This document shows positions 12,605 to 63,458 of a stretch of 64,000 bases of DNA, in pieces (position 1 is the stretch's first letter; each line of letters begins with the position of its first letter). The DNA is taken from contig JAHFBP010000001.1 in assembly GCA_023249975.1 (NCBI GenBank), positions 69,870 to 133,869 on the forward strand. Reading direction: 5' to 3'. The position numbers were made by a program, and so were the translations under genes. This DNA comes from a bacterium (GTDB lineage: Bacteria > Babelota > Babeliae > Babelales > GCA-2401785). A model generated the notes under the pieces. The model did no database searches. It saw only the letters and a list, made by a program, of their open reading frames with translations, and was not told where the DNA came from.

Positions 12605-15600
12605 TTACGATGCATTCTTAAGCAAAGTAGCAAGGTGAGCCAAATCATCGGCGCTCATGCCACTGGTATCGCCTGAAGCTTCGGCAGCATTAGGATCAAC
12701 GGCAACAGCATTAGGATCAGCAACTGGGGCAGCTGCAACTGAAGTCGGCTCTTTCCATCCTTCTTTGAGTGCCTGTTGATATGGTGGAGCCACAAAAATA
12801 TTACGGTAATTAATAGGGGTATTCCAACTACTCAGACCCACATATTGCATACGACCAGGCGGATAAGGATCAGTCCATTCAAGAACCTTGTTAGTTCCCA
12901 AATCACCCTTACCCAAAGCAATCGTGCCATTATCCAAACTAATCCAATACTTTTGATATTCAATGGGCGTAATCATCGCATCAGGATGCTCTTCAGAAGT
13001 AAACTGCGCAACCGGGAAATCAAGACTTTGGACCCTTATGGCTGTTTTAGTATTGTCCCAACCACCAATAACTATCTCATAAATTTCATTTGATGAATTT
13101 CTTGTTTTGAATGGCGTTTGCCCAAAGCAAATGAAAATATCATTAATTGCTTTAGCTTCAAAAACGATTGACCCTTTTCCTGTTTCTTTAAGCTTATCGG
13201 TCAACCACACATATTCAGCATAATAAGGTCGCAATTCAACGCCAGCTCGTGCATTGTCTGCCAGCAAGGCGCGCGCCAATCCATTAATCCAGCTATACCA
13301 AACATCCTTGAGTTTTGCTTCATCAGGTTTATTCATATCAATCAAATATGCATTGTTTTGTGCTGAAATCAGCAAGTTTAAAAGGTCATTGTAAGGAGCA
13401 CGGGCTCCAGGCTGAGTTGGATCTGGATATAATTCTTTTTGAGCTTCATTTAAGCTCGCCAATGCATCGAATAGACTTTTTTTGACATATGGATTTTGAA
13501 CAACATATGGATGATTAATAAGATAAACAATCTGTTGATATAAGCTTACCAAACGCTCAAACTTGTCAGGAGTTGACGGTTTCCACTTGCTACCAAGCTC
13601 AATATTTGCATCAACTTTTGCTTTATTTTCAACAGCTTCTGGAGGGATGCTCGCTTCACCCAAATGCGCACCCATATATTTATCGGTATACACATAAGCC
13701 TGTGCATCACGGAAATTTTGCAATTTAGCCGACTGTGCAGCTGCACCAGCTCCCAGAGCCGCTCCTGCAGCACTAAACCCAAGACTTCCTATTGTTGCTA
13801 TCAAACCACCAATCTGAGTCTGTCCGCTCACTGACTGCCCAGAAGCATCCAAGGATTCTGATGTTGCTTTCATAATGTCTGCTGACTTTTGAAGTTCTAT
13901 TTTGCTTGGATTTTCAGGCTCAGTAACCCAATCCAACTGAGGAAACCCATCTGATTTAACTGTGATCATAAAATAATATTTTGCACGCTGTTGTGGCGTT
14001 GCCCCAGGATAATACGTTTTATTATTAACAATATCTTTAAATTTAACGGATGAACCCTCTTGTTCAATGTGATATTCATACGGCAAAATGATATACACTG
14101 CGCCTTTATACGCAAATTGAGCAAGTTCACGTTTATATGACTCAGAAACTGTGGCAATTTCAGGGCGAACAGGTGAGGCAACTTTAATATTCTTAAAGGA
14201 TGCTGACGTTCCACCAGTACCGCCAAACCCTATATATTTTAAAGTACTGATTGGCGAAATATCTTGAAGAAGAGTAAATGCACCTTCTCCCAACTTTCCC
14301 TCACCAATAATCAATTCACCAAAATAAAAGCTTGCCCAATAACTGCGCACACCACTGGGGTCAAGTGCAGCTTTTGGATATGATTTTGCCTTTAAAAATG
14401 CCATGTCCTTGTATCCGCCGCTGACATCTGAAGACATACGCTGAATTCTGAGGCCTTCATTTTCGCCATCCCCAAAAATAATAAGGTAACGATCACTCTT
14501 GCCATCTTTTTCAGCTGCTATAGCAAAAACCGCCTGCTTATTTCCTTTAACATCAAATGAAACTGCTCCGCGCCCTGGAACACGAAACGGCTTGTCATAC
14601 CAGGTCAAATTATCCAAAGATCCTGATGTATTCACTTCGGTCGTTCCTGCATCAAAAACTCGTTTTGCCGCCGTCATAACGACGGGCTTGCGCATTTGAA
14701 CTTCTGCATAAGTAACCGGTGTTTTATCGGTAGAAAAACCAACACGCCTGACCTGAGCTGGCGGGTTAGGATCACGCCACGACATAATGGTTCCTACGCC
14801 TGGCTGACTTCCCGCTCCAACTAAAATAAGTCCGTCATTAATACTCACCCAATAAGGAATAAAAACTCCTGGCGTAGTTGAAGCGGCTGGAGTCTCGTCA
14901 CGTGTAATTTCAAAAACAACTTCATCAACAGGAAGACCTTCCTCAAATCGTCTTTTAATAATTTGAGACTTGGTATTGTCATATGCACCTAGTCGAACTT
15001 TCCACACAAAGTCTATACCAACATCAAAACCAAAAACGACCTGAATGTCGCCCCTATCTTCCGCCTTTGCTCGAAATAAAATGGTAACCTTGCCAGGAGT
15101 ATCAAGAGATGTCCCCAACCAGGCAGCACCCTTGCTCAACAATGAATTAACGGTCAACATAAAACTTGAATCGAAGTTATCAATCTGATCTTTGGCAAAA
15201 CCCGACAATCGTGGTTTTTTTGCAGCACTCAACGTATCTGCAAAGTCTTGCGTTGCCTTGGGCGCAATTCCTCCACCCATCCCGAGTTTTACAATTTCGA
15301 TATTAACAAGCTCATTTGCCCCATCCTCCGCAGGTGAACCATAAGGCGCTCCTGTCCAGGCAACATCATCTTCGGGCATTGCCGATTCTATGGCATCAAA
15401 GACCCACCATAATCGACTTTTTTGATCGGATGTGAGAGCTTGCGCCACAGGTTCGGCAGGCGCAGTGGTCGCTGCTGTTTTTTGAGCAGCTTCTGCCTGA
15501 GCCGTGGCCTTTGCCTGTATAGCTTCAATCTGTACCGTTGTTGCATCTTTTTGCACAACTGCCTGAGCGCGAACAAGAGCCTCAGCCCCCATAACCTCAC

Positions 15601-16405
15601 TACTTGCTGAATATAATTCACACTTTGCGTCTACACTCACAAAAGTAACATTGCGCCCCCAAATCCACTGTCCACCACCTTCAACCAGTACTTGAAAGTT
15701 GTCTCCTCCATCACCAAGGCCATCTTTTCCATTTAAAGCTACGGCCAAGTTGGATGGTATTGAAGACGCGCGCCTTTGTTTGTCCATGTGGAGATTGCCA
15801 TTGTGTGCAGGATCTGCGCATTGCAAACGAATAATATCGCCATGCATAACAGGAGTCCCTGGGATGCAGTTCCATGGATCATCTTTGCGATGCGGGCCTT
15901 TGACTACCCAATACTCAGGAAGCTCTGCTGCAGCTGCTACCCCAGAAGAAGACTGAAGATTATATTCATAATGATCCCTTCTTACCTTTTCTTTGGTTGT
16001 TCTCATTTCTTGAATACCACTAGAATTATGAATGGATGTGAAATAGTGCTTATAGGTAACATCCTCTTCGGCTTCCTTAGATACAAGCTTTTTAGTAACT
16101 TTCAAATCAACGGCAGAAACTGTGCCCGCTGGGGCACGCAAGCCTTTACTCGATCCAAGGTTACAAATCTTGAGATAGTCGCCATAATTTATCGGTTTTT
16201 TGCGACTCAACAAACCATTCTTAAGAACTGATAGTTGTTCATCTGCAGGAACATCTTTTGCTTCATAATTCAACACCTTTCCCACGTCCTTATTCCCTGC
16301 GATGTCTTTACCTTCTGGGGTGAGTGCGGAGCCTGAAAAAATATTCAAAAAAAGAATGTATCCCCACATTTTACTCTGGTTTTTATTAATCATCATTTTT
16401 GTCAT
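12605..16405 (-). CDS. Giant secreted protein (1266 aa) with three FAMeT-like (Methyltransf_FA-like) beta-sandwich repeats. Paralog of the 17312-21835 protein.
   Basis: N-terminal signal peptide. Three modules match the motif pattern ...IGGWDNTKTAIR...YWISLDNGTIALGKG...VLEWTDPYPP...YVGLSSW. Pro/Ala-rich C-terminal tail. Extensive collinear similarity to the 1507-aa neighbour. Confidence 0.85.
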   Translation of the reverse strand: MTKMMINKNQSKMWGYILFLNIFSGSALTPEGKDIAGNKDVGKVLNYEAKDVPADEQLSVLKNGLLSRKKPINYGDYLKICNLGSSKGLRAPAGTVSAVDLKVTKKLVSKEAEEDVTYKHYFTSIHNSSGIQEMRTTKEKVRRDHYEYNLQSSSGVAAAAELPEYWVVKGPHRKDDPWNCIPGTPVMHGDIIRLQCADPAHNGNLHMDKQRRASSIPSNLAVALNGKDGLGDGGDNFQVLVEGGGQWIWGRNVTFVSVDAKCELYSASSEVMGAEALVRAQAVVQKDATTVQIEAIQAKATAQAEAAQKTAATTAPAEPVAQALTSDQKSRLWWVFDAIESAMPEDDVAWTGAPYGSPAEDGANELVNIEIVKLGMGGGIAPKATQDFADTLSAAKKPRLSGFAKDQIDNFDSSFMLTVNSLLSKGAAWLGTSLDTPGKVTILFRAKAEDRGDIQVVFGFDVGIDFVWKVRLGAYDNTKSQIIKRRFEEGLPVDEVVFEITRDETPAASTTPGVFIPYWVSINDGLILVGAGSQPGVGTIMSWRDPNPPAQVRRVGFSTDKTPVTYAEVQMRKPVVMTAAKRVFDAGTTEVNTSGSLDNLTWYDKPFRVPGRGAVSFDVKGNKQAVFAIAAEKDGKSDRYLIIFGDGENEGLRIQRMSSDVSGGYKDMAFLKAKSYPKAALDPSGVRSYWASFYFGELIIGEGKLGEGAFTLLQDISPISTLKYIGFGGTGGTSASFKNIKVASPVRPEIATVSESYKRELAQFAYKGAVYIILPYEYHIEQEGSSVKFKDIVNNKTYYPGATPQQRAKYYFMITVKSDGFPQLDWVTEPENPSKIELQKSADIMKATSESLDASGQSVSGQTQIGGLIATIGSLGFSAAGAALGAGAAAQSAKLQNFRDAQAYVYTDKYMGAHLGEASIPPEAVENKAKVDANIELGSKWKPSTPDKFERLVSLYQQIVYLINHPYVVQNPYVKKSLFDALASLNEAQKELYPDPTQPGARAPYNDLLNLLISAQNNAYLIDMNKPDEAKLKDVWYSWINGLARALLADNARAGVELRPYYAEYVWLTDKLKETGKGSIVFEAKAINDIFICFGQTPFKTRNSSNEIYEIVIGGWDNTKTAIRVQSLDFPVAQFTSEEHPDAMITPIEYQKYWISLDNGTIALGKGDLGTNKVLEWTDPYPPGRMQYVGLSSWNTPINYRNIFVAPPYQQALKEGWKEPTSVAAAPVADPNAVAVDPNAAEASGDTSGMSADDLAHLATLLKNAS

Positions 16406-17311: not shown

Positions 17312-20300
17312 TCACTTTGGCATACCGTCTGATCCTTGCTCAGTAGCAGCAGCACCAGTAGCAGCTGGTGGTGGTGCTGGTGCTGTGGTTGGAGCTTGAG
17401 CTGACACACCTGTAGGAACAGCCGCTGGTGTTGGAGACTGTACGGTACTTGATTTCTTGATCACAGCAGGATCTTTTTTCTTGATAGCATCTGTCGCAAT
17501 TTTCTTAAGAGCCGCAGATACTGCTCCTGATTTGATTGCTTCCCGAGCTTTTGCAGTCGCTACTTTTTCTTGTTCATAAGCATCTTTAGACTCTTTTTTT
17601 GCATCTTTAAAAGCAGTCTTGAGAGCTGACTTCAGGCCGCCTTTTTCTTTAAAGAAAGCAATCTCCCCCTTAAGCATATGCTTATCTTGTTTTGCCAAAA
17701 AGGCTGCTCCTTGTGCATTCATAATACTTTGTCCTGCAGCACCCCCCTTAACCCGCTGTGCCGCACGAACAATTGGAGTAAAGCCAGTTTCAGCAACCTG
17801 TCGGGCAGCTTTTCGCTCAGCCAAAACTGGCGGTGGCCCAAAGGTATAGTCCCATCCCTCCAGTGTGAGTGGGTCATACGACAGTTCATCATATGCAAGC
17901 TCATCAAAATCTGTTTTTTTGGTGCTAAGAATATCTATTTTTTCAGCCTTTGAGTCCTGAGCAAGCTTGTCCGACTTGGTAATGTCCTCAAATGACAGTG
18001 CTAGAGTAGCTGCTTTTTCCTTTTCAAGAGCCGTCGCCGCGGTTTCTATCGCGCTCGGACCTTTTTGTTTTACTTCAACTAAATATGACAAATCAGTTTC
18101 ATTGGTAACGGGAGGTCCCACCTTGATGTTCGCAAATGTTACGGGAATTGCCCACGTACTAAAGCCTAAATATTGAGTTTTTATAGGGTACGGATCAACC
18201 CACTCCAAAACCTTACCCGTTCCCCATGGTCCATGACCAAGCTTGACCACCCCATCGTTAACGCTTACCCAAAATTTTTCAAGTACATTCGGTGTAAGCG
18301 CAGCATTAATATTATCATCGCTCGAAACCGTTGCGACGGAATGACCAAGGCTATAAGTTCTGATAAAGGTCTTTTGATTTGCCATTCCCCCAAATACGCA
18401 CTCGTAAAAGTCAACGTCCGTATTGCGCACATCCTGAGGTTGTGGAATAAGCCCCACAAAAATATCACTCAATCCACTCGCTTCAAAATACACAGATCCA
18501 CGTCCAGGTTGAGGCAGTTGAATATTTGAAAGCCAAATATATTCACCAAACAATGGCCGAACCGTCAAATCTTTACCTTTTTCAAATAACTCTTGGATCA
18601 ATTGCTGTATCCAGCCAGTCCAGAGGGTTTTTCGCTTGAGATCCATTTCATCACGACGATCCAATAGGTACGCATTTTCACGCGCTTCTACCAAAAGGGC
18701 CACTATCTGCTTTTTAAACATTTCTGGAGCAGCCCAGCGCGTTTCGGGTATTCCATACTGATCATATTTAAGGGGGGTATTTGCTGCATTTCGAGCTTCC
18801 ATATTTTTAACATGCTGGATACCTTGATCATAAACCTGCTTGATCATTCCAAAAAGTTTATTTTTCAGAGCCACTTTGTCTTGTGCTTGCCCAAGAATTA
18901 CCGGATGCGTAATAAGCATAATCGCTTGCTGAAGGATTGAAATATAATATTCGTAGTCACGCGCAATCCCCGGATTGAATTGTTCGAGCTTGTGCATTTT
19001 GTCATCAAACAAAGTCTTGTTGTCTTGAGCCTCCTGAGGAATAACGCCAGCCTTGCCACGCACAGATGTCTGTATTTTTTCCGTAAACACATAATTGTCA
19101 TGTGGTCGGTAACCAAAAGTATTGTTTGCCTCAAGAGTTGCAACTCCCACACTTCCCGCCACAAATGCCGAAGCTGATGCTATAGACGCTGCTGCATTAA
19201 CCGCAGAAAGTGCCATTCCAACAGGATCCCCATCCTGATACGGAACATTTCCTATTTCAGCAGCAGCACTGAGGGTCGTTCCAATAATGGTTCTTGCACC
19301 AAAAACAGCTAAGTTTTTCAAGAACACTTGTGCATTTTTCGGTTGACGCGACCAATCTCCAATCTCAGGAGTTCCATCTGGCTTGATAATCAAACGAAAG
19401 AAGTACGAGGCTGCTTGCTGTGGAGTTTTTCCTGGATACCATGTCTCTTGAGCTATTGCATCATAACACTCAATTTGCTGACCTTTTTGATCAAAATGAT
19501 ATGAAAAAGGAAATGCAACATTGATGACCCCTGCAAAATTATCACGCTGTTTAAATCCAGCAGCTACTTGCATACCCAATTGAACAGGCGACCCAATGCT
19601 CACATTTTGGATTTCACCCGTACTGGCATCGTTCAAGAAAAAACCTATTTTTTTCATTGAAGCCAACTGATCAATCCGGAGTATCGCCATTATCTTCTCA
19701 CCAGGCTCGCCATGCCCAATCACCATATAATCATAAAAAAGGCTCACCCAAAACTTTTTCCACTGATCTGGATCAAGCGCTTCCTGAATAAAAGCTACTG
19801 GAGTGGCTAGTACAGTTTCTTCGTACTCACCCTTTTCATTCATTTTCCATAGCGAAATGCCATCAAGATTATTGGCCCCGAAGGAAACTTGTATAACGGA
19901 TGCCTTATCCGCAGAAATCACGCCCTGAGAATCATCGCTTTTCAAGTTCAATACAACTTGCCCCTGACCTCGTGCCTCAAAGGTGACGCACCCTCGGCCA
20001 TCTTCACGCAAAGGCTTGTCGAGCCACAGCGGAGCATCCATTCCAACAGAAAGAACTCCCGGCTTTTCTATTGCTGTATAAACTTTGGATTGTTTTGTTG
20101 CTTTGATTGGGGGGCCAAGTTGAACTTCAACTATTTCAACATTTGTCTTAAAGTTTGAAAATCCAATGCGATCAACTTCGGCTGGTGGTGCAGGGTCTGC
20201 CCATGCAATAATAATATTTTCTCCAGGAATAGCCCCTGCGCCTGCAACAATCAATCCATTGTCAACACTTACCCAATAAGGCATATGCATGCCTGGCGGT

Positions 20301-21835
20301 ATTGCGGCAAGTGCGTTTTGTTCAACGGGAACCTCCGCTACAATGCAATCCCCCTTCATGATTACAGCCTTGGTATTATTAAACCCCCCAATAATTACTT
20401 TCCACACATATTGAGCAGGCGAAAGCTTGGTCGAACCAAATACTATTTGAAGATTTGCCGCATCTTCAACTTGTGCCCTAAACATAATAGAAGTACTCAT
20501 TGGTGTTGCCAAAGGAGTCTGAAGCCAGGCTGCCCCAAGATTCATAAGGCGACTCAGTTTTAAGCTTGTTTGATAATTGAAATTTTCAATGCGCTGTTGC
20601 GCAAAACCACTAATCACTGGTCGATCACGAACATATACTCGAAATGCTCCCGTTGGAGCATCAAATGGCAACATATTTTGAAGCGTATCTCGAAATGAAC
20701 CCTTGGCGCTCACCGTTAGTGCCGCAAGCCCTGCACTTGCTGCACCAAGCCCTCCAACCGCTAACGCAACCAGCCCGATGCTCTTTGCACTTGCAATCCC
20801 AGCTCCTCTATCGGCCGCACTTCGAGAAGCCTCTTTAGTGTCCCCATCGGCACTAATAGTTGCCATTTTTACACTTTGAGCATTGCGAGTAATCATTTTT
20901 TCTCTGAATTTTTGCTGAATTTTTTTTGCAGCTTCATCTTTTGTTACAGATGTAGCATTTTTTGCTTTTTCTATTGTTTCAGCCTTTTTTTCAGCAGCAA
21001 ACTTATCCTTCTTTTTTTCAGCAGCAGCCTTATCCTTGTTGTCCTGAACCTGCTTATCATAACCCTCCTTAATATGCTTATCTGCAAAACGCTGCAATAC
21101 ACTACCAGAAGTCTGTACCTTTACAGCTGCTTGCCGAGCCTCAAGCTCTACTTGAGTTCTTTTACTTTCATCAATTTGTTTCTTAATTTTTTTTGCTTCA
21201 TCTGAGTCTTGATCTTTATGCTCAAGCAACTTATTACTTAAATCGTTCTGTTTTTGCCTATGCTTATCAATACCTTTTTCATTAGCTCGATAATCAAGAG
21301 ACCGCGAAACTATTGCATCTTTTTCGGCAAATTGTTTTTTGAGCTTTTCATCATTTGGATTGTCTTCAAGTTGCTTTTTAAGCTCCCTGCGATTTTGTAT
21401 TTCTTTATCTAATTCATTGGGATTTTCTATCAATCCCTTACGCTCTTGTCCCACAATTTTTTTTACTGCCTTATTGGCTTGAGAGTTAAGGGCATACATA
21501 AGAGCCGCAGACCCCATCATCCCAAGGCTAGCCAAAAAGGTTTGTGCTTTTGCTGGCTCTGGATCTAATTGGATATTATCAGAATTTCCGCCATTGGCCC
21601 CAATTCGATAATCTTTGTTGGAAAAAGAAACTACTATAGGAAAATCAGAATTATTTTCTATGCGTTCGATAATCCCCCAGCCATGATTAGCTTTGGCAAA
21701 AAAATCCTGATTAACTTGATCACTTGCCTCTTGCATGTCCTGATCGGTAAGCGGAAAGCACTCATGAAGTGTATTGCCACAAAGAATAATTGTTAAAAAT
21801 ATGGCAATTTTTTTTCGATAGCCATTGTCATACAT
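17312..21835 (-). CDS. Giant secreted protein (1507 aa): K/E-rich coiled-coil N-region followed by three FAMeT-like repeats. Paralog of 12605-16405.
   Basis: Signal peptide MYDNGYRKKIAIFLTIILCGN. Long KEKKDK charged region. Modules with VWKVIIGGFNNTKAVI, PYWVSVDNGLIVAGAG and VLEWVDPYP. Pro/Ala-rich C-terminus. Confidence 0.85.
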   Translation of the reverse strand: MYDNGYRKKIAIFLTIILCGNTLHECFPLTDQDMQEASDQVNQDFFAKANHGWGIIERIENNSDFPIVVSFSNKDYRIGANGGNSDNIQLDPEPAKAQTFLASLGMMGSAALMYALNSQANKAVKKIVGQERKGLIENPNELDKEIQNRRELKKQLEDNPNDEKLKKQFAEKDAIVSRSLDYRANEKGIDKHRQKQNDLSNKLLEHKDQDSDEAKKIKKQIDESKRTQVELEARQAAVKVQTSGSVLQRFADKHIKEGYDKQVQDNKDKAAAEKKKDKFAAEKKAETIEKAKNATSVTKDEAAKKIQQKFREKMITRNAQSVKMATISADGDTKEASRSAADRGAGIASAKSIGLVALAVGGLGAASAGLAALTVSAKGSFRDTLQNMLPFDAPTGAFRVYVRDRPVISGFAQQRIENFNYQTSLKLSRLMNLGAAWLQTPLATPMSTSIMFRAQVEDAANLQIVFGSTKLSPAQYVWKVIIGGFNNTKAVIMKGDCIVAEVPVEQNALAAIPPGMHMPYWVSVDNGLIVAGAGAIPGENIIIAWADPAPPAEVDRIGFSNFKTNVEIVEVQLGPPIKATKQSKVYTAIEKPGVLSVGMDAPLWLDKPLREDGRGCVTFEARGQGQVVLNLKSDDSQGVISADKASVIQVSFGANNLDGISLWKMNEKGEYEETVLATPVAFIQEALDPDQWKKFWVSLFYDYMVIGHGEPGEKIMAILRIDQLASMKKIGFFLNDASTGEIQNVSIGSPVQLGMQVAAGFKQRDNFAGVINVAFPFSYHFDQKGQQIECYDAIAQETWYPGKTPQQAASYFFRLIIKPDGTPEIGDWSRQPKNAQVFLKNLAVFGARTIIGTTLSAAAEIGNVPYQDGDPVGMALSAVNAAASIASASAFVAGSVGVATLEANNTFGYRPHDNYVFTEKIQTSVRGKAGVIPQEAQDNKTLFDDKMHKLEQFNPGIARDYEYYISILQQAIMLITHPVILGQAQDKVALKNKLFGMIKQVYDQGIQHVKNMEARNAANTPLKYDQYGIPETRWAAPEMFKKQIVALLVEARENAYLLDRRDEMDLKRKTLWTGWIQQLIQELFEKGKDLTVRPLFGEYIWLSNIQLPQPGRGSVYFEASGLSDIFVGLIPQPQDVRNTDVDFYECVFGGMANQKTFIRTYSLGHSVATVSSDDNINAALTPNVLEKFWVSVNDGVVKLGHGPWGTGKVLEWVDPYPIKTQYLGFSTWAIPVTFANIKVGPPVTNETDLSYLVEVKQKGPSAIETAATALEKEKAATLALSFEDITKSDKLAQDSKAEKIDILSTKKTDFDELAYDELSYDPLTLEGWDYTFGPPPVLAERKAARQVAETGFTPIVRAAQRVKGGAAGQSIMNAQGAAFLAKQDKHMLKGEIAFFKEKGGLKSALKTAFKDAKKESKDAYEQEKVATAKAREAIKSGAVSAALKKIATDAIKKKDPAVIKKSSTVQSPTPAAVPTGVSAQAPTTAPAPPPAATGAAATEQGSDGMPK

Positions 21836-24926: not shown

Positions 24927-26009
24927 TTAATCTAAATAGATCCTTGATCTCAAAGGACGTCCTGCACGCCGATCAGCTGCAATGTCTTGCTCAATTTGCT
25001 CAGCATACTTTGACATTAAGTCATGATATTCTACAGCCTCACAATCCTTGAGATATTCTGCATCTGCAACAAACGCATCACAAGCTCTTAAAAATTGAGA
25101 ACTTTCTCCAGCTTCATCATACGAAATTGCTCGACGTTGCTTGGCATGATCCCGTTCAGCTTCATCACAAGCTCTTATAAGCTCTAAATCTTCTTCAGAA
25201 ATAACCAGATTTTGCACGGGATCAGCAACTCCAAATGCTATGGCTAAACTTCTTTTTCGACTCTGCCAATCTAAATGGGATTGTCCCATTTCTGCCTGAT
25301 TACAATACTTTATGTCTGCAAAATCACGTATCTCAGCAATATACAGATTCACTAAATCTTCAATAGCTCGCCTTACTGGTATATACGCTAAATCATGCCC
25401 AATATGGGCATCAGTCACCCTAAGTGCAAGATCTCTAAAACATTCCAATTTACTCAAACAATAGGTTGGATTGTCTTTACGATTATGAATATCAATGTTT
25501 TCATAATTTTCGCAAGCTGCAGCACGAGTCCAATTGAATGACCCAGAAATAACTTCATCATCAACAATCACCATCTTGTGATGAATCATTTTTTCTTTTT
25601 TGGCGCTTTTAATCAAATAAACACGATCAGGATATCTGTGCACAAGCTCCTTAAGGTCAAGAATTGCATTGTTAAGAGTAAGGCGACCCTTTGGAGTTGA
25701 AGCTTTATCATAAATAACAACAACTTTTAGATTTTGATTGTGACGCACAGCATCTACAATTGCACGAGTAAAATGATTATCGGTCAACATATACATCGCA
25801 ACAAAAATAACATTTTTTGCGCCAGCAAGCTTTTCACAAATAAACTCGCGAATATCATGCTCAGGGGTATGCATTGTTCGTGGGGAACTAGAAAAAAAGC
25901 TTTCTCGTGGTGGAGTCTGAAAACCAACTGCCGGAGGTAACACAGGCTGAACTGTTGTTGAGACTAGTATCGAAAAAAGTAAGGCTAGGCTTTTTATGGT
26001 GGAATTCAT
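24927..26009 (-). CDS. Secreted phospholipase D/nuclease-superfamily protein with a single HKD motif and a ~180-aa C-terminal extension
   Basis: Signal peptide MNSTIKSLALLFSILVSTTVQP. HHKMVIVDD...GSFNWT matches HxK(x4)D(x6)GSxN. Confidence 0.7.
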   Translation of the reverse strand: MNSTIKSLALLFSILVSTTVQPVLPPAVGFQTPPRESFFSSSPRTMHTPEHDIREFICEKLAGAKNVIFVAMYMLTDNHFTRAIVDAVRHNQNLKVVVIYDKASTPKGRLTLNNAILDLKELVHRYPDRVYLIKSAKKEKMIHHKMVIVDDEVISGSFNWTRAAACENYENIDIHNRKDNPTYCLSKLECFRDLALRVTDAHIGHDLAYIPVRRAIEDLVNLYIAEIRDFADIKYCNQAEMGQSHLDWQSRKRSLAIAFGVADPVQNLVISEEDLELIRACDEAERDHAKQRRAISYDEAGESSQFLRACDAFVADAEYLKDCEAVEYHDLMSKYAEQIEQDIAADRRAGRPLRSRIYLD

Positions 26010-26240
26010 ATACAATTTCTTCAAGATACGAATAAAAATAATCAAATTTCATGATGAGTAAAAATAATAAAACAAAACAGGCAAATAGGCTTTTTTTTTT
26101 ACAAAAGGCCACTTTTTATCATTTTTATGCGCACCAACCTTCACGGCATTACAACATGGCTATACTTGAAACACTGGACATGTTAGAATATTTCACATAG
26201 TACACAAAACAACAGGGGAACAATATTAATGAAGGATGTT

Positions 26241-26793: not shown

Positions 26794-27879
26794 TCAACTT
26801 TTAATCATTGCAACATACGCCAAATTACGTGATCGCGCCCAAGCGGTCAAAAAACTATCCAGAGGGCATCTTCGTAAGGTGTCCTCATTTTTTTTGTGAT
26901 CCGAATCAATCAACACGACCTCTTTTGTTGTATTGTCCCACCCAATCACCAACACAAAATGGCCCTTGGTATATGGCTTGGTTCCACTGGCAATTTCTCC
27001 GCGCACACTCACCGGCACAGGGATTCCTTTGTGTAAATAGTGATATAAATCTTTGAATGAATTAAGACGCTCAACTCGGACATTCACCTTGCCATCCAGC
27101 TCATGGTATGCCTGCGCAACATTAAACAACCAGTTTCCATAGATATGCAACGCCCCATTGTCATACACCTTTTCTGCAAATCGAACCACGCCCTGGTCAA
27201 GAGCGATATCATTTTTTTTGCCTAATGTGCGCTTGAGATACCTTACCAAAAGCATTGTGGCAGTTGGTGAACAAAATGCAGGACAACGGTGATGTTTTAA
27301 CAAATGCTGCGACTGCAGCTCAATGTCCCGAAGAAGGATTGATGATTTGTTAAAATGATTCTTTTTGCGAAACAATGCGTCAGTCGAAGTGGCTGCGCAC
27401 AATTGGTTTACACAATTTAATTGCGCGCCATCCTCTGCGCAAACCTCAAACTTCAATCCCGTAGCTTTATGCTTTTTCTGAACATCAAATCGAACATATT
27501 GAGCATAAGCCTTAGATTTTTTTTTGCCGAAGCCGAATGATCGCTGTTCATCCAGTGCCCATGTCGCAAACTTTTGCAATGGCGACCAAGTGCCATCAAC
27601 TAACAAACTTCCCTTAAATGAAAGCTGTCCGACTAAAGGGCGGCGTGCGTTCCATGAAAAAATGCATTCAGTAAAGGGATCACATTTGGTGCACTCCCAC
27701 AACAGGGTCTTTGTATGATTTTTATTATGATTTTTATGGGGATGATAAATGTAGGTCTTGGAAAATTGATGTGAATTTAAAGGCGCAGCGCCCAAGGTTA
27801 TTAATAAAGACAGAAAAAGACTCTTACTTGCCCACGCAAAATTTTTGAAACACAAGATCAAGTGTTTTTTCTGAGACAT
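26794..27879 (-). CDS. Secreted papain-like cysteine peptidase, C39-like domain
   Basis: Catalytic-Cys region HRCPAFCSPTATMLLVRYL resembles CGPTSLAMVLNYL of C39-like peptidases. His motif GHFVLVIGWD follows. N-terminal hydrophobic signal. The 5' end overlaps the mnmE 3' end. Confidence 0.55.
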   Translation of the reverse strand: MSQKKHLILCFKNFAWASKSLFLSLLITLGAAPLNSHQFSKTYIYHPHKNHNKNHTKTLLWECTKCDPFTECIFSWNARRPLVGQLSFKGSLLVDGTWSPLQKFATWALDEQRSFGFGKKKSKAYAQYVRFDVQKKHKATGLKFEVCAEDGAQLNCVNQLCAATSTDALFRKKNHFNKSSILLRDIELQSQHLLKHHRCPAFCSPTATMLLVRYLKRTLGKKNDIALDQGVVRFAEKVYDNGALHIYGNWLFNVAQAYHELDGKVNVRVERLNSFKDLYHYLHKGIPVPVSVRGEIASGTKPYTKGHFVLVIGWDNTTKEVVLIDSDHKKNEDTLRRCPLDSFLTAWARSRNLAYVAMIKS

Positions 27880-29206
27880 GTTTACCTGCAAGTTGTGACA
27901 ACTGAATCAGCATATCCTTTGCAGTATACGCAACCAGCTCATATTGCCCACCCTGCTGTGTAAGATTTTGAATATCATGAATCTTACGTATCAAAGTTTC
28001 AATGGTTGCACGATGCCGCTCATTCAATAAATAAGGCGTTGCTCCAACTTGAGTGCAATGTGTGATCTTAGATTCGATCAACGAAATAAGCTCTTCAATT
28101 CCACGCTCTTGTAGAGCAGAAACTTTATGGACTGACTCAAAAATATCATCTTGAGCTTTTATGACACCCTCACACTTGGATGCCACCACAATAATCTTGT
28201 CGCCATATTGTGCGCTAATTTCTTGATAGCGTTCACGTTCCTGGTCAGACATAACTCGTGACGCATCAAAAACCAAAACGACCACATCTGCCTTGGCCGC
28301 TTCTTCATGCGTCCGAAGAATGCCTTCTTGTTCAATGACTTCGTCCGTTTTGCGCAAGCCGGCCGTATCGACAACTGTCCACAAAATTCCATTGACTGAA
28401 AGCCCTGCTTCAATAGTATCGCGTGTGGTACCTGCCTGAGGGCTTACAATCGCACGTTTTTTGCCGATCACGGCATTAAACAATGTCGATTTTCCCACAT
28501 TAACTGTACCGACAAGAACAATACGCACACCTTCACGCACATGTTGTTGCCCTGCAAAACCATGATGTAATTTTTTTATTTTTGAATAGACAAGTTCAAT
28601 CTGATCCAAAATTCTTTGCCCATGCCCAAAATCAACCTGCTCTTCTTCCAAGAACTCAAAGCTCACTTCAGACAATACCACCAAAAACTCAAGATCATTT
28701 TGCAATTGAGCAAACTGAGCGGACAAACTTCCTTCAACCTGACCTAGTGCCTTTTCAACTGCAGCTTCAGATTGAGCGGCAATCAACTCGGCGATTGACT
28801 CGGCTTGGACAAGGTCAATTTTACCATTTATCACAGCCTGACGAGTGAATTCACCGCGTTGCGCAATGCGTGCACCAGCTTTGACTAATGACTGAATGGT
28901 TCGATCGATTAAAAGATTATTGTTGTGTCCAGTGATCTCAACGGTGTCATATCCCGTGAATGTGCGAGGAGCTCTCATGAGCATGAAAAGCACTTCGTCG
29001 ACTTTAACATGTCCATCCATCACAAAACCATGATGAATGGTATGGCTGACGGCATCAACCAGTTTCTTTTTTGAAGTGAGCAAGGCGCATGTATCGGCTA
29101 TCTCAACAGCGCCTGGCCCCGAAATTCGTATCATAGACAGCGCGCCCGATCCACGTGGCGTACACAAAGCAACCACGGCCTCATGATTAAGCGACACCGA
29201 CTTCAT
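27824..29206 (-). CDS. mnmE: tRNA modification GTPase MnmE (TrmE)
   Basis: 460 aa. G-domain motifs GTVNVGKSTLFNA and DTAGLR. C-terminal FCVGK matches the MnmE C(I/V)GK tail. Confidence 0.93.
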   Translation of the reverse strand: MKSVSLNHEAVVALCTPRGSGALSMIRISGPGAVEIADTCALLTSKKKLVDAVSHTIHHGFVMDGHVKVDEVLFMLMRAPRTFTGYDTVEITGHNNNLLIDRTIQSLVKAGARIAQRGEFTRQAVINGKIDLVQAESIAELIAAQSEAAVEKALGQVEGSLSAQFAQLQNDLEFLVVLSEVSFEFLEEEQVDFGHGQRILDQIELVYSKIKKLHHGFAGQQHVREGVRIVLVGTVNVGKSTLFNAVIGKKRAIVSPQAGTTRDTIEAGLSVNGILWTVVDTAGLRKTDEVIEQEGILRTHEEAAKADVVVLVFDASRVMSDQERERYQEISAQYGDKIIVVASKCEGVIKAQDDIFESVHKVSALQERGIEELISLIESKITHCTQVGATPYLLNERHRATIETLIRKIHDIQNLTQQGGQYELVAYTAKDMLIQLSQLAGKHVSEKTLDLVFQKFCVGK

Positions 29207-43869: not shown

Positions 43870-43903
43870 AAAAGCAAGGGGAGAATTATTGCGGGGGAAT
43901 CTT

Positions 43904-45466
43904 ATGAAAGTTCATTTACACAGACAATTATTTATTATTTGTGCGGTAATCAGCACCATCTCTTGTGTCATTTTTCCAAAAGACGATACCCTCAAAGCTC
44001 AAGTTGGCATTATCTCAGACCAAGCTGATCGTCGGGCTGGAAGAAAGCATCCGCACACCAATGCGGCCCCAATTGTTCAGCAAGACCCTGTTGAACAAAA
44101 GCAAATTGTTGCCCAAAAAGACTGGACTATTTTTTTGTATATTCAGGCTCGCAACAACCTTGCTCCATTTGCCATCAGAAACCTTAAAGAAATTACCGAT
44201 GTTGGGCCTGGCGAAAAAGTTAACGTGGTCGTTCAATGGGAACAACCGCACCAGAAGGGCGTTTGGCGTTATATCATAGAAAAAGACCGCATTGTATTGC
44301 TCGAGAGCGATGAGACTGATCATAATATTGACCCGGCCAAAAGATTGGTTGATTTTATAGCCTGGGGCGCTAAGCGCTATCCGTCCAAAAAAACTGCCGT
44401 CATTTTGTGGAATCATGGGATTGGAGCTCTTGATCCAACGTGGGGCAACCCAATGCGGTTCCTTGTATTTGGTGATGGCAAACACAACCCACGCCTTGAT
44501 ATTGAAGGCGTTACCTACACAAGCTCTAATATAGAGCAAGAAGAGTCCGAAGAGGGTAACTCCTATCAAACACAGCAATCCCGCTCAGCGAAAGCTGCAA
44601 AGGACAGATCTGACCTGTCTGAAAACGAGCACAGGGGATTGCTCTTTGATGAGCTCTACAAAATTTATATGACCAATAAAGACCTGGGGCGTGCCTTGCG
44701 CGGCATTTATGCTGTTTTAGGAAAAAAAATAGACGTTCTTGGAATGGATACCTGTTTCTCGCAAATGATGGAGCCTGCCTATCTAGCCAAAGACTTTGCG
44801 CATTATTATGTAGCATCTCAGGACATCGAACTGGCAAGAGGTTGGCCCTATGACGAAATTATGAAAGCACTCCAAAACGACCTGTCTCCACGCCAACTGG
44901 CCGAAACCATCGTACAAAAATACGAACAACTTTATCGCGGAAAAACACATCTTTTTACGCTTTCAGCAATTGATTTGAGTAAAATTATGCCCCTCAAACA
45001 AAATATTGACTCAGTTGCACAACACCTCATTGCAGCCATGAGTGCTGAGCGTGGTCCTGTTACATCACTCATCAGACGGTCACGCAAGGAAACGCTTGAA
45101 TTTTCAACACCTCTTTATGTTGACCTCCATTCATTCTATCTCGAACTTTCTAATAATATTTCTGCAGCATTTCAAAACCGGATGGGCCAGGGTCTTTTCC
45201 CTTCCTTGGCTCATCGCTATCCAAATCGCATCATAAGTAGCATCAGCAGAACGCCACTTTCAGAAAATCTTCTCAGGGAAGTTCAAAGCGGCATCAATTT
45301 GATCAATCAAGCCGTATTTGCAAAAACATCCAGCCAACGATTGGGTCGATCTCAAGGAATTTCGATCTATTTCCCTCAATATGGACTCGACGATTCATAT
45401 ATCAACAATGAATTTGCTCAACAATCGACATGGACCCAACTCATTAATGTTATGCTTCAATCCTAA
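43904..45466 (+). CDS. Secreted clostripain-like cysteine peptidase (MEROPS C11 family)
   Basis: Signal peptide MKVHLHRQLFIICAVISTISC. Catalytic dyad motifs ILWNHGIGA (His-Gly) and LGMDTCFSQMME (Cys). Paralog of 62181-63458. Confidence 0.7.
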   Translation: MKVHLHRQLFIICAVISTISCVIFPKDDTLKAQVGIISDQADRRAGRKHPHTNAAPIVQQDPVEQKQIVAQKDWTIFLYIQARNNLAPFAIRNLKEITDVGPGEKVNVVVQWEQPHQKGVWRYIIEKDRIVLLESDETDHNIDPAKRLVDFIAWGAKRYPSKKTAVILWNHGIGALDPTWGNPMRFLVFGDGKHNPRLDIEGVTYTSSNIEQEESEEGNSYQTQQSRSAKAAKDRSDLSENEHRGLLFDELYKIYMTNKDLGRALRGIYAVLGKKIDVLGMDTCFSQMMEPAYLAKDFAHYYVASQDIELARGWPYDEIMKALQNDLSPRQLAETIVQKYEQLYRGKTHLFTLSAIDLSKIMPLKQNIDSVAQHLIAAMSAERGPVTSLIRRSRKETLEFSTPLYVDLHSFYLELSNNISAAFQNRMGQGLFPSLAHRYPNRIISSISRTPLSENLLREVQSGINLINQAVFAKTSSQRLGRSQGISIYFPQYGLDDSYINNEFAQQSTWTQLINVMLQS

Positions 45467-47193: not shown

Positions 47194-47646
47194 ATGAACA
47201 AGCCATATGCTTTTGCCGTTATTTTGACGCTTTTCAGCCTTGTCGGCACATGCTGTGCAGGTAAGCTTGGCAAAAAATTTACTAACCTAACTCTTATTTG
47301 CGATGAATCGCCTGAAACCCGACTTATTAATCGCATAGCCATCATCAAAAACCTATGTGAACACCTACCTCAACATGCAAACTATGGGGTTATTGATGCA
47401 GCAACTCTCAGCAACCTTATCGGTCGGCAAGAATGCACCTTTGTTGATGATTCAAACCTCAATCTATTGGCGCTTGTAAAAGACTTTAGAGAAAAACTTA
47501 ATTCATATATTACAGAATCAAGAATCGACCTTACACAACCATACACCTTCCCAATAGAATGTGTAATCGAATACCTTCGGCATAAAAAAGTAGTTTACAT
47601 CAATGCATTATCCCAACTTCAGGACAACCGTCCCGCAACCCGTTAA
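47194..47646 (+). CDS. Hypothetical small secreted protein (150 aa)
   Basis: Signal peptide MNKPYAFAVILTLFSLVGTCCA. Confidence 0.5.
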   Translation: MNKPYAFAVILTLFSLVGTCCAGKLGKKFTNLTLICDESPETRLINRIAIIKNLCEHLPQHANYGVIDAATLSNLIGRQECTFVDDSNLNLLALVKDFREKLNSYITESRIDLTQPYTFPIECVIEYLRHKKVVYINALSQLQDNRPATR

Positions 47647-47664
47647 AACCCGATAAGGATTACT

Positions 47665-48072
47665 ATGAACAAATTGCATGCACTTATTATTACTTTTGCC
47701 CTTGGCTCTTCAATCCAAGCCATGAACAGCGATTTTGAAACTCCACCACAAAGCCCACGCAAAAATCCTTATGCCGACTGCTGCGCCCCTGTTCAAAAGC
47801 CGAAAAAAGATGTACTTCGTATGCTCGTTAATGAATACAATGAGACTCCATGTATTCCCGAAAATCGCATTATCAGACAGGGTCTTTATAATGAAATCCT
47901 AAGTTTCTTGCCTCCCAGAAACCTGGTACCAGCATGTCTTTTAAACGCGCTTAATCTGGATGATTACTTGACGCTTCTCGCCGCAGGACAAGCAACCATC
48001 CAGGATCGTGATGCGTTCGTAGACGGGATTGAAAACCTGCTTGCTCACTATGCTGCTCTTGGCTTAAATTAA
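47665..48072 (+). CDS. Hypothetical small secreted protein (135 aa)
   Basis: Signal peptide MNKLHALIITFALGSSIQA. Tandem to the previous small secreted ORF. Confidence 0.5.
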   Translation: MNKLHALIITFALGSSIQAMNSDFETPPQSPRKNPYADCCAPVQKPKKDVLRMLVNEYNETPCIPENRIIRQGLYNEILSFLPPRNLVPACLLNALNLDDYLTLLAAGQATIQDRDAFVDGIENLLAHYAALGLN

Positions 48073-48190
48073 TAAAATTTCATCTAATGGGGGCGTTGAA
48101 TATGATCGCCCCTTTTGACAATGCCGTCATTCATCTGGTAGCCTAATAGAGTAGCTTTTCTTGGGCTACATGATCTTTGATAGAAAATCT

Positions 48191-48640
48191 GGGGGTGTAC
48201 CGGCTTTCGACGTGTCGTTGTGTATCCTTGGTGCGTGTCGAGTTTGATTGTGGCTCGTAAAAAAACGATCAGCACAATAAGTGCAAACACAACAATGGCC
48301 CTTGTGGCCTGTGCTTCTGCAGCTCTTGTAGCTGCAGCTACAGCTTTTGTTGCTCCTGTTGCCGCTGCTTTTGCAGTTGCCTTCAGCAACGACACTGTAG
48401 TAGCTTAACCGCTGAACACCTTGTAAGCAGGTGTGTCTATTCACCCAGCTTACTCGTATTATAATAATAGAACTTGCCAGGTAGATTTCCTCTTTGGGTA
48501 ACCTGGTTTGTATCAACCAAAAGGGCAGAGTGGGTTTTGGGGCTTCTTGCATTCCTTCTCTGAACCTCAAGAAGACACACACGTAGTACCTCTGATATAA
48601 AGCGGGGCGGACATGGGTTCGACTCCCATCACCTCCACCA
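48191..48640 (+). ncRNA. ssrA: tmRNA (ssrA), about 450 nt, with a long Ala/Val-rich tag reading frame
   Basis: 5' end GGGGGTGTACCGGCTTTCGACG. 3' end is a T-arm (ATGGGTTCGACTCCCAT) + CACCTCC + A + CCA pairing with the 5' GGGGGTG, including a G3·U wobble (alanine identity). Candidate resume codon GCA at 48283 is preceded by AAAAAACGATCAGCACAATAAGU, as in E. coli. Tag frame runs to TAA at 48406-48408. Confidence 0.8.
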
Positions 48641-48980
48641 TTCTTCGCCAAGGCTTCGAATGGCACAGCTAGCCCTAATGTGTAGCCAGATTTTTTAATA
48701 GGACCTAATTTTCTTATAATTTTTTCTATGTTTTATTCAACAAGCTTCATGTTGCAATACCCCATTTTTTTAAAATAAACGATGTTTTATAAACACTTTT
48801 GTGTTAATTATTTTTCATGCTAAGGTAGCAGTTAGCCCAAAAGATGATGAAGGCGAAAGTGTCCATCTTGAAAGCGATTACCTGAGTCATTGGTACGTGC
48901 TCTGCGTTCCTAGGTAATACCACTGCGATAACTACATAATAGAGATGTTCATATCAACCATTTTAAATTGCGAGATAATC

Positions 48981-49475
48981 ATGAACTATAAAACAACAAC
49001 TCTTCTTATCGCAAAAATCCTTGCCGCTACATTCTCTCTCGCGGCATCTAACCAAACATTCTCCCTACCAGAAAGCCCTCATAATAAGGAATTAATTAAA
49101 AAAGCTGACCGGACCGCTAGGATAGCTTCCAAAGAGGCAAAGGCCGCAAGGGAAGCTGAGAACAAAAAAGAGCGTAGCATTAAAATAGCAACGATAAATG
49201 CCCTTGCAGAAGAAAATAAAAAAATAGCTCAACAAGCTATTGATCATGCTGCAACGGTTATGGATATCACTATCAAAGATGCGATAAAAGATGTAGAAGC
49301 CACAGCTGCGCACGCATCTGTCCTAGCAAAAGAAGCAATCGCCGCAATAAGTGCTGAATCGGCCAATGCAACAAGGAATATTGTGTGTTCCGTAAATGAT
49401 CAATTGGCTACCCTAGAAGATGAAGTTGCTGTAACGGTAAAGGGTGTTCCTCAGTTACTCTATAAAGTAGTCTAA
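48981..49475 (+). CDS. Hypothetical secreted Ala/Lys-rich coiled-coil protein
   Basis: Signal peptide MNYKTTTLLIAKILAATFSLAAS. Followed by a rho-independent terminator (7-bp stem + T8) at about 49525-49560. Confidence 0.5.
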   Translation: MNYKTTTLLIAKILAATFSLAASNQTFSLPESPHNKELIKKADRTARIASKEAKAAREAENKKERSIKIATINALAEENKKIAQQAIDHAATVMDITIKDAIKDVEATAAHASVLAKEAIAAISAESANATRNIVCSVNDQLATLEDEVAVTVKGVPQLLYKVV

Positions 49476-49577
49476 ATATTCATAACCATGAAAGAAATAA
49501 TGCGTAGTTGTTCGTGAAAAAGATGTGCTCATATCATGTGGGCACATCTTTTTTTTCTCACTTTTTAGTTTTGATTT

Positions 49578-62180: not shown

Positions 62181-63458
62181 TTATGCGAACAGCCCTGTTG
62201 GTCCATGCGGCACATTTTTCAAGAATTTGGGCCAATAACAATTTTTGGCAAAGACTGTTTTGGCATACGATGCATGTGCGGCATTGAGGGGATAGTAAAT
62301 GGAAAGTCCGCCAATATTTTCATGATCAGAGCCAAATGAGCGTGCAATGATCGCATTATTAATAAGCGAGAGTCCATCTTTCACGAGAGCTTGTAGTTTA
62401 GGTACGAGAGGATTTCTAGCCAATTCTGGTTGGGCCCCAAAATTTTCACTGATACTGATGTACCAGCGAGAGAGATCAACAAAGTTTCGATCATGAAAAA
62501 CTGGCGTCATGGCACGATTTCTTCTGATAAACATAAGTAACTTGCGAACAGCTTCCCCCTTAGGTCCCTTATACAAGTCTTCCAAGCAGTGAGCCACATT
62601 CGAGATATTATCTTCAATTTTGCTGACAGTATTGGTTCGAGTTGCCACGAGGGTAAAGCCAGGAAATGCCGCATAACGTTCGCGATATTCCTTTTCGTAA
62701 GCTTTGACAATAGCCTTGGAAAGCTCTTCTGGGGTTGGGGTATTGTTTTTAAATATTTTTAAGATTTCTGTATAGCCCCATCCATTGCCAGGCTCCACTT
62801 CTGGAGACGCAATTACAATTTCTGCAGTGTGCTGAATTTGTGATAATATTTCAGCACCATTCATGAGGCAGGCATCAAATCCAACAATGGCAAACTTTTT
62901 ACCATTCATGTGTTTTAGCACGGCGTCTTCCAGGGTTGACTTAAGGTCTTGATTGTCGAGATACACATTGTATTCATCATTAAACGCAATGCCGCGTGAT
63001 AAAAAGTGACCTGATATAAACTTAGACCTGTCCAGGCATCCGCTGCCATGGTTACCGATAATAACGACATAATTATCCGCAGGAAATGATGGAATTCCCC
63101 AGGCGAGAAAATCAGCAAAACTTTCACGAGTACCACTTGCATTTTTGGCTGTTTTTTCCAATGAAGCACACTCAATAATTTGACCAGGTTTGATGTAAAG
63201 TCGTTTGATGTGTGAAGTGTTTTTGATATCAACTTGTGCGACAAGGTTAACATTTTTGTCAGAGATTAAGCTCATCAATTCCTCAATGTCTTCTTCAAGG
63301 TATTGCGCCAGAGAGTTATTCCCAGCTTCGTAAAATAGCAAAGTATAAGCCTTTTTAGGCTGCTTTGGCTGAATGACTCTGTTTTCATCCTGAGCTGTTT
63401 TTGAAAAAAGATTTACACTGCATACTACGAGAAAAAATATTGATAATAATTTTTTCAT
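62181..63458 (-). CDS. Secreted clostripain-like cysteine peptidase (MEROPS C11), paralog of 43904-45466
   Basis: Signal peptide MKKLLSIFFLVVCSVNLFS. His motif VVIIGNHGSGC. Cys motif VGFDACLMNGAE (classic FDACLM). Confidence 0.75.
   Translation of the reverse strand: MKKLLSIFFLVVCSVNLFSKTAQDENRVIQPKQPKKAYTLLFYEAGNNSLAQYLEEDIEELMSLISDKNVNLVAQVDIKNTSHIKRLYIKPGQIIECASLEKTAKNASGTRESFADFLAWGIPSFPADNYVVIIGNHGSGCLDRSKFISGHFLSRGIAFNDEYNVYLDNQDLKSTLEDAVLKHMNGKKFAIVGFDACLMNGAEILSQIQHTAEIVIASPEVEPGNGWGYTEILKIFKNNTPTPEELSKAIVKAYEKEYRERYAAFPGFTLVATRTNTVSKIEDNISNVAHCLEDLYKGPKGEAVRKLLMFIRRNRAMTPVFHDRNFVDLSRWYISISENFGAQPELARNPLVPKLQALVKDGLSLINNAIIARSFGSDHENIGGLSIYYPLNAAHASYAKTVFAKNCYWPKFLKNVPHGPTGLFA

Follow-up and report, generated by a model that had tools for sequence, protein, structure and literature searches.

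Introduction

The tag of Escherichia coli transfer-messenger RNA (tmRNA), ANDENYALAA, takes up 10 codons, and the tags of described tmRNAs usually run to 8-25 or so codons. Here, we describe a tmRNA gene (ssrA) at positions 48191-48640 of a 64-kb stretch of bacterial DNA from contig JAHFBP010000001.1 (the window, by which we mean the whole stretch that was analysed), in which the tag reading frame takes up 41 codons. Judging from the sequence, we read it as a functional ssrA of a divergent uncultured member of the Dependentiae (TM6) that would act like any other one-piece tmRNA, and we give this reading a probability of about 0.85.

When set beside canonical one-piece tmRNAs such as E. coli SsrA, the gene has the same parts: a transfer RNA (tRNA)-like domain with a G3·U pair and CCA, helix 2, pseudoknot (PK) 1, a resume context of the type AUAR-NN followed by GCA-AAC, a stop codon in helix 5, and PK2 with putative PK3 and PK4. 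Canonical tags also start with AN and end with a non-polar residue plus Ala, as the window tag does. The differences are a length of 450 nucleotides (nt) versus a model length of 374, the uncharged Ala/Val-rich middle of the tag, and the lack of an ALAA end. Tag length is the one atypical trait, placing the gene at the far end of the variation known for tags, and what separates this gene from described tmRNAs is a matter of degree and not of kind.

Longer-than-usual tags without an LAA end are also found in Mycoplasma and Mesoplasma, which share with the present case a reduced-genome, host-associated bacterium, but which belong to an unrelated phylum and show no sequence similarity. Gur and Sauer are said to have reported in 2008 a tag of about 27 amino acids (aa) for these genera, with Lon taking over from ClpXP. 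In M. pneumoniae, proteins that carry the ssrA tag are a substrate of Lon (PMC8403727).

As for size, a 2005 survey gave Chlamydophila psittaci, at 425 nt, as the longest tmRNA and reported mRNA-like domains of 48-126 nt, the 126-nt domain being that of the Odontella sinensis chloroplast (PMC1168896). The length of the tmRNA open reading frame (ORF) is highly variable, and tagging is largely independent of its sequence (PMC4236655). The window tmRNA resembles the two extremes of that survey in showing how widely the size of a tmRNA and of its mRNA-like domain can vary, and it exceeds both: the whole RNA has 450 nt, the ORF and its stop codon by themselves take up 126 nt, and PK1 and PK2 are about 150 nt apart. 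No published maximum tag length was found in the literature searched; therefore, we claim no record beyond the sequences examined here.

Identification of the tmRNA gene

The Rfam model RF00023 and ARAGORN, each on its own, detect a forward-strand tmRNA with the exact limits 48191-48640, and the model match is untruncated (model positions 1-374 of 374, 120.8 bits, E 1.1e-46, with a gathering score of 47). Neither of the two finds another tmRNA in the window, making this the single copy there. For comparison, 16 distinct Dependentiae tmRNAs were recovered through ksgA synteny, and the gene could be aligned end to end with 15 Dependentiae tmRNAs. Contigs obtained for some other KsgA relatives were truncated or lacked the synteny.

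An earlier note, made by reading the letters of this stretch, had proposed a tmRNA with textbook ends and a G3·U pair in the acceptor stem, an open frame of 41 residues from GCA 48283 to TAA 48406-48408, and resumption at this GCA, 93 nt from the 5' end. All of this has been borne out: the ends by the full-length model match, the ARAGORN call, the acceptor stem, the T-arm, and the CCA; the frame by translation; and the resume codon by the evidence in the next section, along with an ARAGORN deletion test that is described further below.

G3 (48193) stands opposite U (48634), and this pair, an alanine identity element, is kept in 16/16 aligned sequences. Acceptor pair 6 is U-A in the window and C-G in 15/15 relatives, which is a compensatory change. 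The motif made up of the T-arm and the 3' part of the acceptor stem (48613-48640) occurs once in the window. All 450 nt are also present, at 100% identity, in an independent metagenome assembly in the ENA (L002), and assemblies of several samples in NCBI, ENA and Logan contain the locus.

The features of the gene are as follows, where the covariance model (CM) is RF00023:

48191-48640 (+), complete one-piece tmRNA gene (ssrA), 450 nt; RF00023 and ARAGORN with identical ends
48191-48197 (+), 5' strand of the acceptor stem, GGGGGUG; pairs with CACCUCC at 48630-48636
48239-48271 (+), PK1; stem 1 CGAG (48239-48242) with CUCG (48254-48257), stem 2 UGAUUGU (48245-48251) with ACGAUCA (48265-48271)
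48276-48282 (+), resume determinant AAUAAGU, with the AUAA tetramer at -6 to -3; motif common to relatives
48283-48405 (+), tag reading frame ANTTMALVACASAALVAAATAFVAPVAAAFAVAFSNDTVVA, 41 codons; translation, with the resume codon set by the CM, the clade, and the deletion test
48327-48342 (+), perfect 16-nt palindrome UGUAGCUGCAGCUACA; matches its own reverse complement, with the GCA 48334 called by ARAGORN at its centre
48401-48414 (+), helix 5 mini-hairpin UAGC-UUAACC-GCUG with the stop codon in its loop; local folds of the window and 16 relatives
48406-48408 (+), stop codon UAA, the first in-frame stop; homologous to the stops of relatives (GCU-UAA block)
48423-48565 (+), PK2-PK4 domain; CM alignment and 16-sequence alignment
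48423-48453 (+), PK2 hairpin GUAAGCA...AGCUUAC; well conserved
48477-48506 (+), PK3 hairpin CCAGGU/ACCUGG; CM alignment, low posterior
About 48524-48561 (+), PK4; CM alignment, low posterior
48613-48629 (+), T-arm AUGGG/UUCGACU/CCCAU; CM alignment, with posterior '*' throughout 48613-48640
48637 (+), discriminator A, and 48638-48640 (+), encoded CCA; CM alignment

PK1 is placed by the CM alignment and by a homologous block in the 16-sequence alignment, and the pairs of its stem 1 are kept across the clade (alignment columns 50-55 with 66-72). The stop codon lies in or beside a local helix-5 hairpin in most relatives, several of which have the form GC-UUAAnn-GC, and the loop of L094 is identical to that of the window (UUAACC). 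Helix 5 is lost from the Rfam alignment because a large insertion precedes it. PK3 and PK4 are the most diverged parts, with several consensus pairs unformed in the register chosen by MAFFT. The family assignment, the anatomy, and the positions of the resume and stop codons are established. On this evidence 48191-48640 is, as far as sequence can tell, a genuine, functional-looking one-piece tmRNA, with each defining feature that can be looked for in a sequence present and with PK3 and PK4 tentatively placed.

The resume codon

The RF00023 alignment sets its consensus block AAUAAuU-GCa-AAC on 48276-48288, with no placement further downstream, making GCA 48283 (gene position 93) the resume codon. 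The context in the window, AUAA-GU before GCA-AAC (48277-48288), is in exact register with the AUAG-UC before GCA-AAC of E. coli tmRNA. The frame is set via SmpB by positions -6 to +1 (PMC3985003), and tmRNAs have a strong preference for AUAG or AUAA 5' of the resume codon (PMC4236655).

The relatives agree with this placement. The resume codon lies at position 92-99 in 16/16 of the recovered Dependentiae tmRNAs; directly 5' of it is AUAAGU or a single-base variant of it (AUAAAU, AUACGU, or AUGAGU), and GCA-A/G follows. There are four resume-like sites in the window RNA, and position 93 alone has the AUAA tetramer at the position used by the clade. PK1 ends 11 nt before the resume codon and lies outside the reading frame.

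The frame from GCA 48283 is free of stops until TAA 48406-48408. One should keep in mind that a second frame is likewise open across the region, and that an open frame of 41 codons is not improbable per se; the tag length is therefore taken from the position of the resume codon and not from ORF statistics. Under the usual convention, in which the tmRNA-borne alanine is counted, the appended length is 42 residues.

Length of the tmRNA and its tag

The window tmRNA measures 450 nt, versus 354-415 nt in its relatives (median 372, n=16), and its tag has 41 residues, versus 9-28 (median 12, n=16), a length roughly three times that of its relatives. The excess over the median relative is 78 nt overall and 87 nt in the ORF. 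The 16-sequence alignment is in register throughout the tRNA-like domain, helix 2, PK1, the resume block, the stop/helix-5 block, and PK2-PK4, and the extra length forms one block inside the ORF (columns about 128-215). The claim of the earlier note that the extra nucleotides roughly equal the extra tag length thus holds, with all the extra bases falling inside the ORF. According to the alignment, the frame has grown by about 87 nt in this particular lineage, between a conserved resume block and a conserved stop/helix-5 block.

A genome collection was scanned with the pattern GGGGGTGTANNGGNTTTCGAC. This pattern is too narrow, as the window carries an extra base there; the scan returned mostly tmRNAs of Fibrobacterota and no close relative. 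Used solely as a size baseline, the 61 unrelated tmRNAs measure 344-446 nt (median 352), with ARAGORN tags of 8-32 aa (median 10). At 450 nt, the window tmRNA is at the top of the range but not unique, a metagenome-assembled genome of Peribacteria having one of 446 nt. Its predicted tag is the longest among the 78 tmRNAs examined, 13 residues beyond that of the longest relative.

The closest likenesses in tag length are two Dependentiae relatives in which ssrA also lies next to ksgA: L173 (415 nt, tag ANASKKGFNAFIPSYSNFANCNVAIAAA) and L086 (409 nt, tag AESNTATVVHHFTPSYAGVSMCACA). They share with the window the synteny, the resume motif and its position, the helix-5 stop block, and the tendency toward long tags that is found in part of the clade. 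They differ in that their tags are shorter and show no sequence similarity to that of the window, and the window RNA is the more diverged. The tags of L086 (25 aa) and L173 (28 aa) have in common a mid-tag F-x-P-S-Y motif, which the window tag does not have; this suggests a conserved internal element of the sub-lineage to which these two belong.

Composition and C-terminus of the tag

The tag can be divided into a polar, clade-typical start (AN-TT), a run of 30 uncharged residues (5-34), a polar SND, and a non-polar end (TVVA). Ala and Val make up 59% of it, compared with 15% in the housekeeping genes of the window. Its grand average of hydropathy is 1.56, and the most hydrophobic 19-residue stretch reaches 2.22 on the Kyte-Doolittle scale. 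A simple sum over residues 5-23 on the Hessa biological scale comes to about 0 kcal/mol, which is borderline. A comparison of the codon usage of the tag with that of the housekeeping genes was uninformative.

Among the clade, the recurring parts of the tag are the A-[N/E/D] start and the hydrophobic-Ala end only, with length and sequence varying widely in between. The tags of the relatives end in VYA, AYA, ALA, AFA, SFA, AAA, ATA, VQA, or ACA, with two exceptions (FVV and CCT), and a GCU-UAA block is common to many of them. By this comparison VVA appears as a normal type of C-terminus for the clade, namely, a hydrophobic residue followed by Ala. The suggestion in the earlier note that a VVA end would need differently tuned protease or adaptor recognition is unsupported relative to its kin; since VVA fits the hydrophobic-then-Ala pattern that is the norm in this clade, no special protease tuning is indicated. 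It is the clade as a whole that departs from the ALAA ending, which is what ClpX and ClpA recognize (PMC3985003).

Is the long tag a tuned degron or a neutral by-product?

The long tag could be translated and yet be a neutral by-product, with nothing but ribosome release and a non-polar C-terminus being of consequence in this lineage. The middle of the tag would then have drifted, its length increasing as GCN/GUN-rich sequence was inserted or slipped. This explanation competes with an adaptive reading of the tag, and not with the assignment as a tmRNA, and we put it only a little short of even odds. It is favoured by the variety of the clade tags (9-28 aa), in which the start and the end are all that recurs, and by the lack of significant RNA-structure selection or repeat architecture. 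The expanded ORF has a minimum free energy of -48.4 kcal/mol, compared with -43.2 +/- 3.6 kcal/mol for synonymous permutations, 9% of which fold as well. Tandem Repeats Finder reported no tandem repeats in the long frame.

On the other side stands the strongly biased composition of the tag, with its uncharged run of 30 residues and its high content of Ala and Val. There is also a hint of peptide constraint, which is not significant, in two apparent repeat blocks that are identical at 13/16 of codon positions 1-2 and at 2/8 of positions 3. Such a third-position bias would fit a constraint at the level of the peptide; a GCN/GUN composition explains it equally well.

An internal tandem duplication was considered as the source of the insert and rejected, as the best periodicity, 8 codons (ALVACASA/ALVAAATA), is matched by 16-20% of codon shuffles. 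A search for a donor elsewhere in the window gave only low-complexity chance matches. As to whether the expansion had an adaptive or a neutral origin, we lean toward drift and expansion of a weakly constrained tag middle as the most economical reading.

Alternative resumption at GCA 48334

There is one disagreement between the programs. ARAGORN resumes at the in-frame GCA 48334 and reports a 24-aa tag, AATAFVAPVAAAFAVAFSNDTVVA, in which case the preceding 51 nt would be an untranslated spacer. This codon has UAG at -5 to -3 (GUAGCU before GCA), similar to the UAGUC before GCA of E. coli. When mid-frame codons of the window tmRNA were removed one by one, ARAGORN gave a downstream or bogus call as long as at least 34 codons were left and moved to position 93 at 33 codons or fewer (102 nt with the stop). 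The 24-aa call is, therefore, unsupported and is a software artefact of a built-in maximum tag length.

Further points against resumption at 48334 are that the CM sets the resume block at 48283 instead, that no relative resumes beyond position 99, and that the clade AUAA motif is lacking. In addition, GCA 48334 sits 62 nt past PK1 at the centre of the perfect palindrome and would consequently be base-paired. We regard resumption there as quite improbable. The two codons are in one frame; the C-terminal 24 residues are identical under both readings.

The palindrome UGUAGCUGCAGCUACA is followed by a U-rich stretch and was flagged by the terminator scan as a 7-base-pair hairpin. It is probably a mere hairpin within the expanded ORF.

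Is the RNA maintained?

One might also propose that the gene is a decaying, non-functional tmRNA that has lost its original stop codon, in which case the long frame would be meaningless. Several observations weigh against our reading of a functional gene and should be stated. The window tmRNA is the most diverged of the set and scores lower against the CM than any other in the clade (120.8 bits versus 144-160 for relatives). In the collections that were searched no close relative turned up, the nearest KsgA having 60% identity, and a protein search with a 166-aa ORF that lies antisense to the gene matched the query sequence only. RNAalifold finds 71 consensus pairs in the clade alignment, 40 of them with compensatory changes, and 18 of the 71 are unformed in the window, mostly in PK3, PK4, and lower helix 2, where the MAFFT register is doubtful. 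These unformed pairs may reflect misalignment or real erosion.

The remaining 53 of the 71 pairs are formed, 13 of them through changes on both sides relative to the majority of the relatives; acceptor pair 6 and three upper helix 2 pairs belong to these 13. Such double compensatory changes speak against decay, as do the full-length model match and the intact tRNA-like domain, G3·U pair, encoded CCA, PK1, resume motif, and helix 5. Being the homologue of the stops in the relatives, the stop codon is a retained one and not a new one further downstream. The syntenic position has been kept, and this is the sole tmRNA in the window. We accordingly consider decay to be very improbable, slightly more so than resumption at 48334, and the window RNA is best described, from its pattern of substitutions, as a diverged but apparently maintained tmRNA.

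An origin of the 87 additional nt in misassembly or in a chimera was considered in view of the metagenome source, and we give it next to no credence: no positive sign of it was found, the identical 450 nt are present in the independent ENA assembly, the locus is known from several samples and sources, the insert is in frame with homologous blocks on both flanks, and no further copy of the insert occurs in the window.

Proposed mode of action

If the gene works as its anatomy suggests, alanyl-tRNA synthetase would charge the tmRNA with alanine through G3·U. Together with SmpB, the tmRNA would occupy the vacant A site when a ribosome has stalled and would take over the nascent chain on the alanine that it carries. 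AUAAGU would position GCA 48283 as the resume codon, the 41 codons would be translated, and UAA 48406, in the helix-5 loop, would bring termination. The C-terminus of a rescued protein would gain 42 residues, with a polar start (A-ANTT), a core of 30 uncharged Ala/Val/Leu/Phe residues, the polar SND, and the non-polar TVVA end. We infer from the conserved features that the RNA is aminoacylated, that it tags proteins, and that the tag acts as a degron.

No SmpB was found among the scanned ORFs of the 64-kb window; the genes for SmpB and for the proteases would be located elsewhere in the genome. The cultured Dependentiae give some idea of the proteases available in the phylum. Chromulinavorax has Lon and M41 peptidases (PMC6561590), and Babela has expanded ATP-dependent Zn proteases along with Prc (PMC4378268). 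Clp is not mentioned in either of these papers, which does not amount to evidence that Clp is absent. FtsH is known to degrade membrane-associated products of trans-translation (PMC3985003). It is conceivable, but in our view unlikely, that the uncharged core acts as a marginally membrane-competent segment carrying rescued proteins to FtsH-type proteases anchored in the membrane, or as an extended degron of the Lon type. If the core did act in targeting, a tmRNA tag would here add a targeting step to proteolysis.

Consequences for annotation

ARAGORN cannot report tags of more than 33 codons, with the result that annotation pipelines silently truncate or misplace such tags. The program also missed a 370-nt tmRNA in L090 (3501-3870), which was easily found by a profile search. 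The upper range of tag lengths in uncultured phyla may, therefore, be underestimated. The tags of Dependentiae are unusually plastic, with lengths from 9 to 41 residues, and, if the prediction for the window holds, they offer a natural experiment in tag growth in which only the two ends are kept. The understanding of trans-translation is unchanged by this locus.

Several spurious ORFs lie over the tmRNA: 48166-48666 (-), 48084-48395 (-), and 48220-48408 (+). The first of these, the 166-aa antisense ORF, has been annotated as a gene, its predicted product having entries in NCBI, ENA, and Logan (P0001), and is an annotation artefact.

Genomic context

The window is an ordinary segment of a bacterial chromosome, with about 41% G+C and genes for GroEL, Rho, PolA, YifB, MnmE, UvrC, GatB, RNase G, LeuRS, KsgA, Nfo, IF-2, and NusA. 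The nearest KsgA homologues have about 55-60% identity, and those with names belong to Candidatus Dependentiae or Babeliales (TM6). The gene order LeuRS, C11 peptidase, a 219-aa protein, ksgA, and ssrA is common to the window and several of its relatives (L086, L089, L172, and L173). Because of these KsgA homologues and the shared gene order, the host is placed, on sequence grounds, in a deep-branching lineage of the Dependentiae. Clostripain-like C11 peptidases are encoded at 43889-45466 (+) and 62181-63458 (-), the first being the one in the LeuRS-ssrA gene order.

The tmRNA is flanked at 47194-48072 (+) and 48945-52792 by ORFs without a Pfam match; the two upstream are small, and those downstream include ORFs of 176, 467, and 425 aa. 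Relatives carry other genes at these flanking positions. A genomic island at the 3' end of ssrA was considered and rejected, since the 26 nt at that end occur only once in the window, even when up to 3 mismatches are allowed. A scan for a sigma-70 promoter upstream of ssrA gave none at its threshold.

Elsewhere in the window, Rho (3068-4924, -; 618 aa) has about 195 additional N-terminal residues ahead of the part that matches the Rho models. Two adjacent giant proteins of 1266 and 1507 aa, encoded at 12605-16405 (-) and 17312-21835 (-), contain repeated Methyltransf_FA domains (PF12248), a farnesoic acid O-methyltransferase-like domain better known from eukaryotes; they may be host-interaction effectors. 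Finally, adjoining genes at 24927-26045 (-) and 26794-27891 (-), located among housekeeping genes, encode a PLD-like phospholipase-family protein and a protein with a C39-like peptidase domain, and this pair may represent effector-type genes of an intracellular bacterium.

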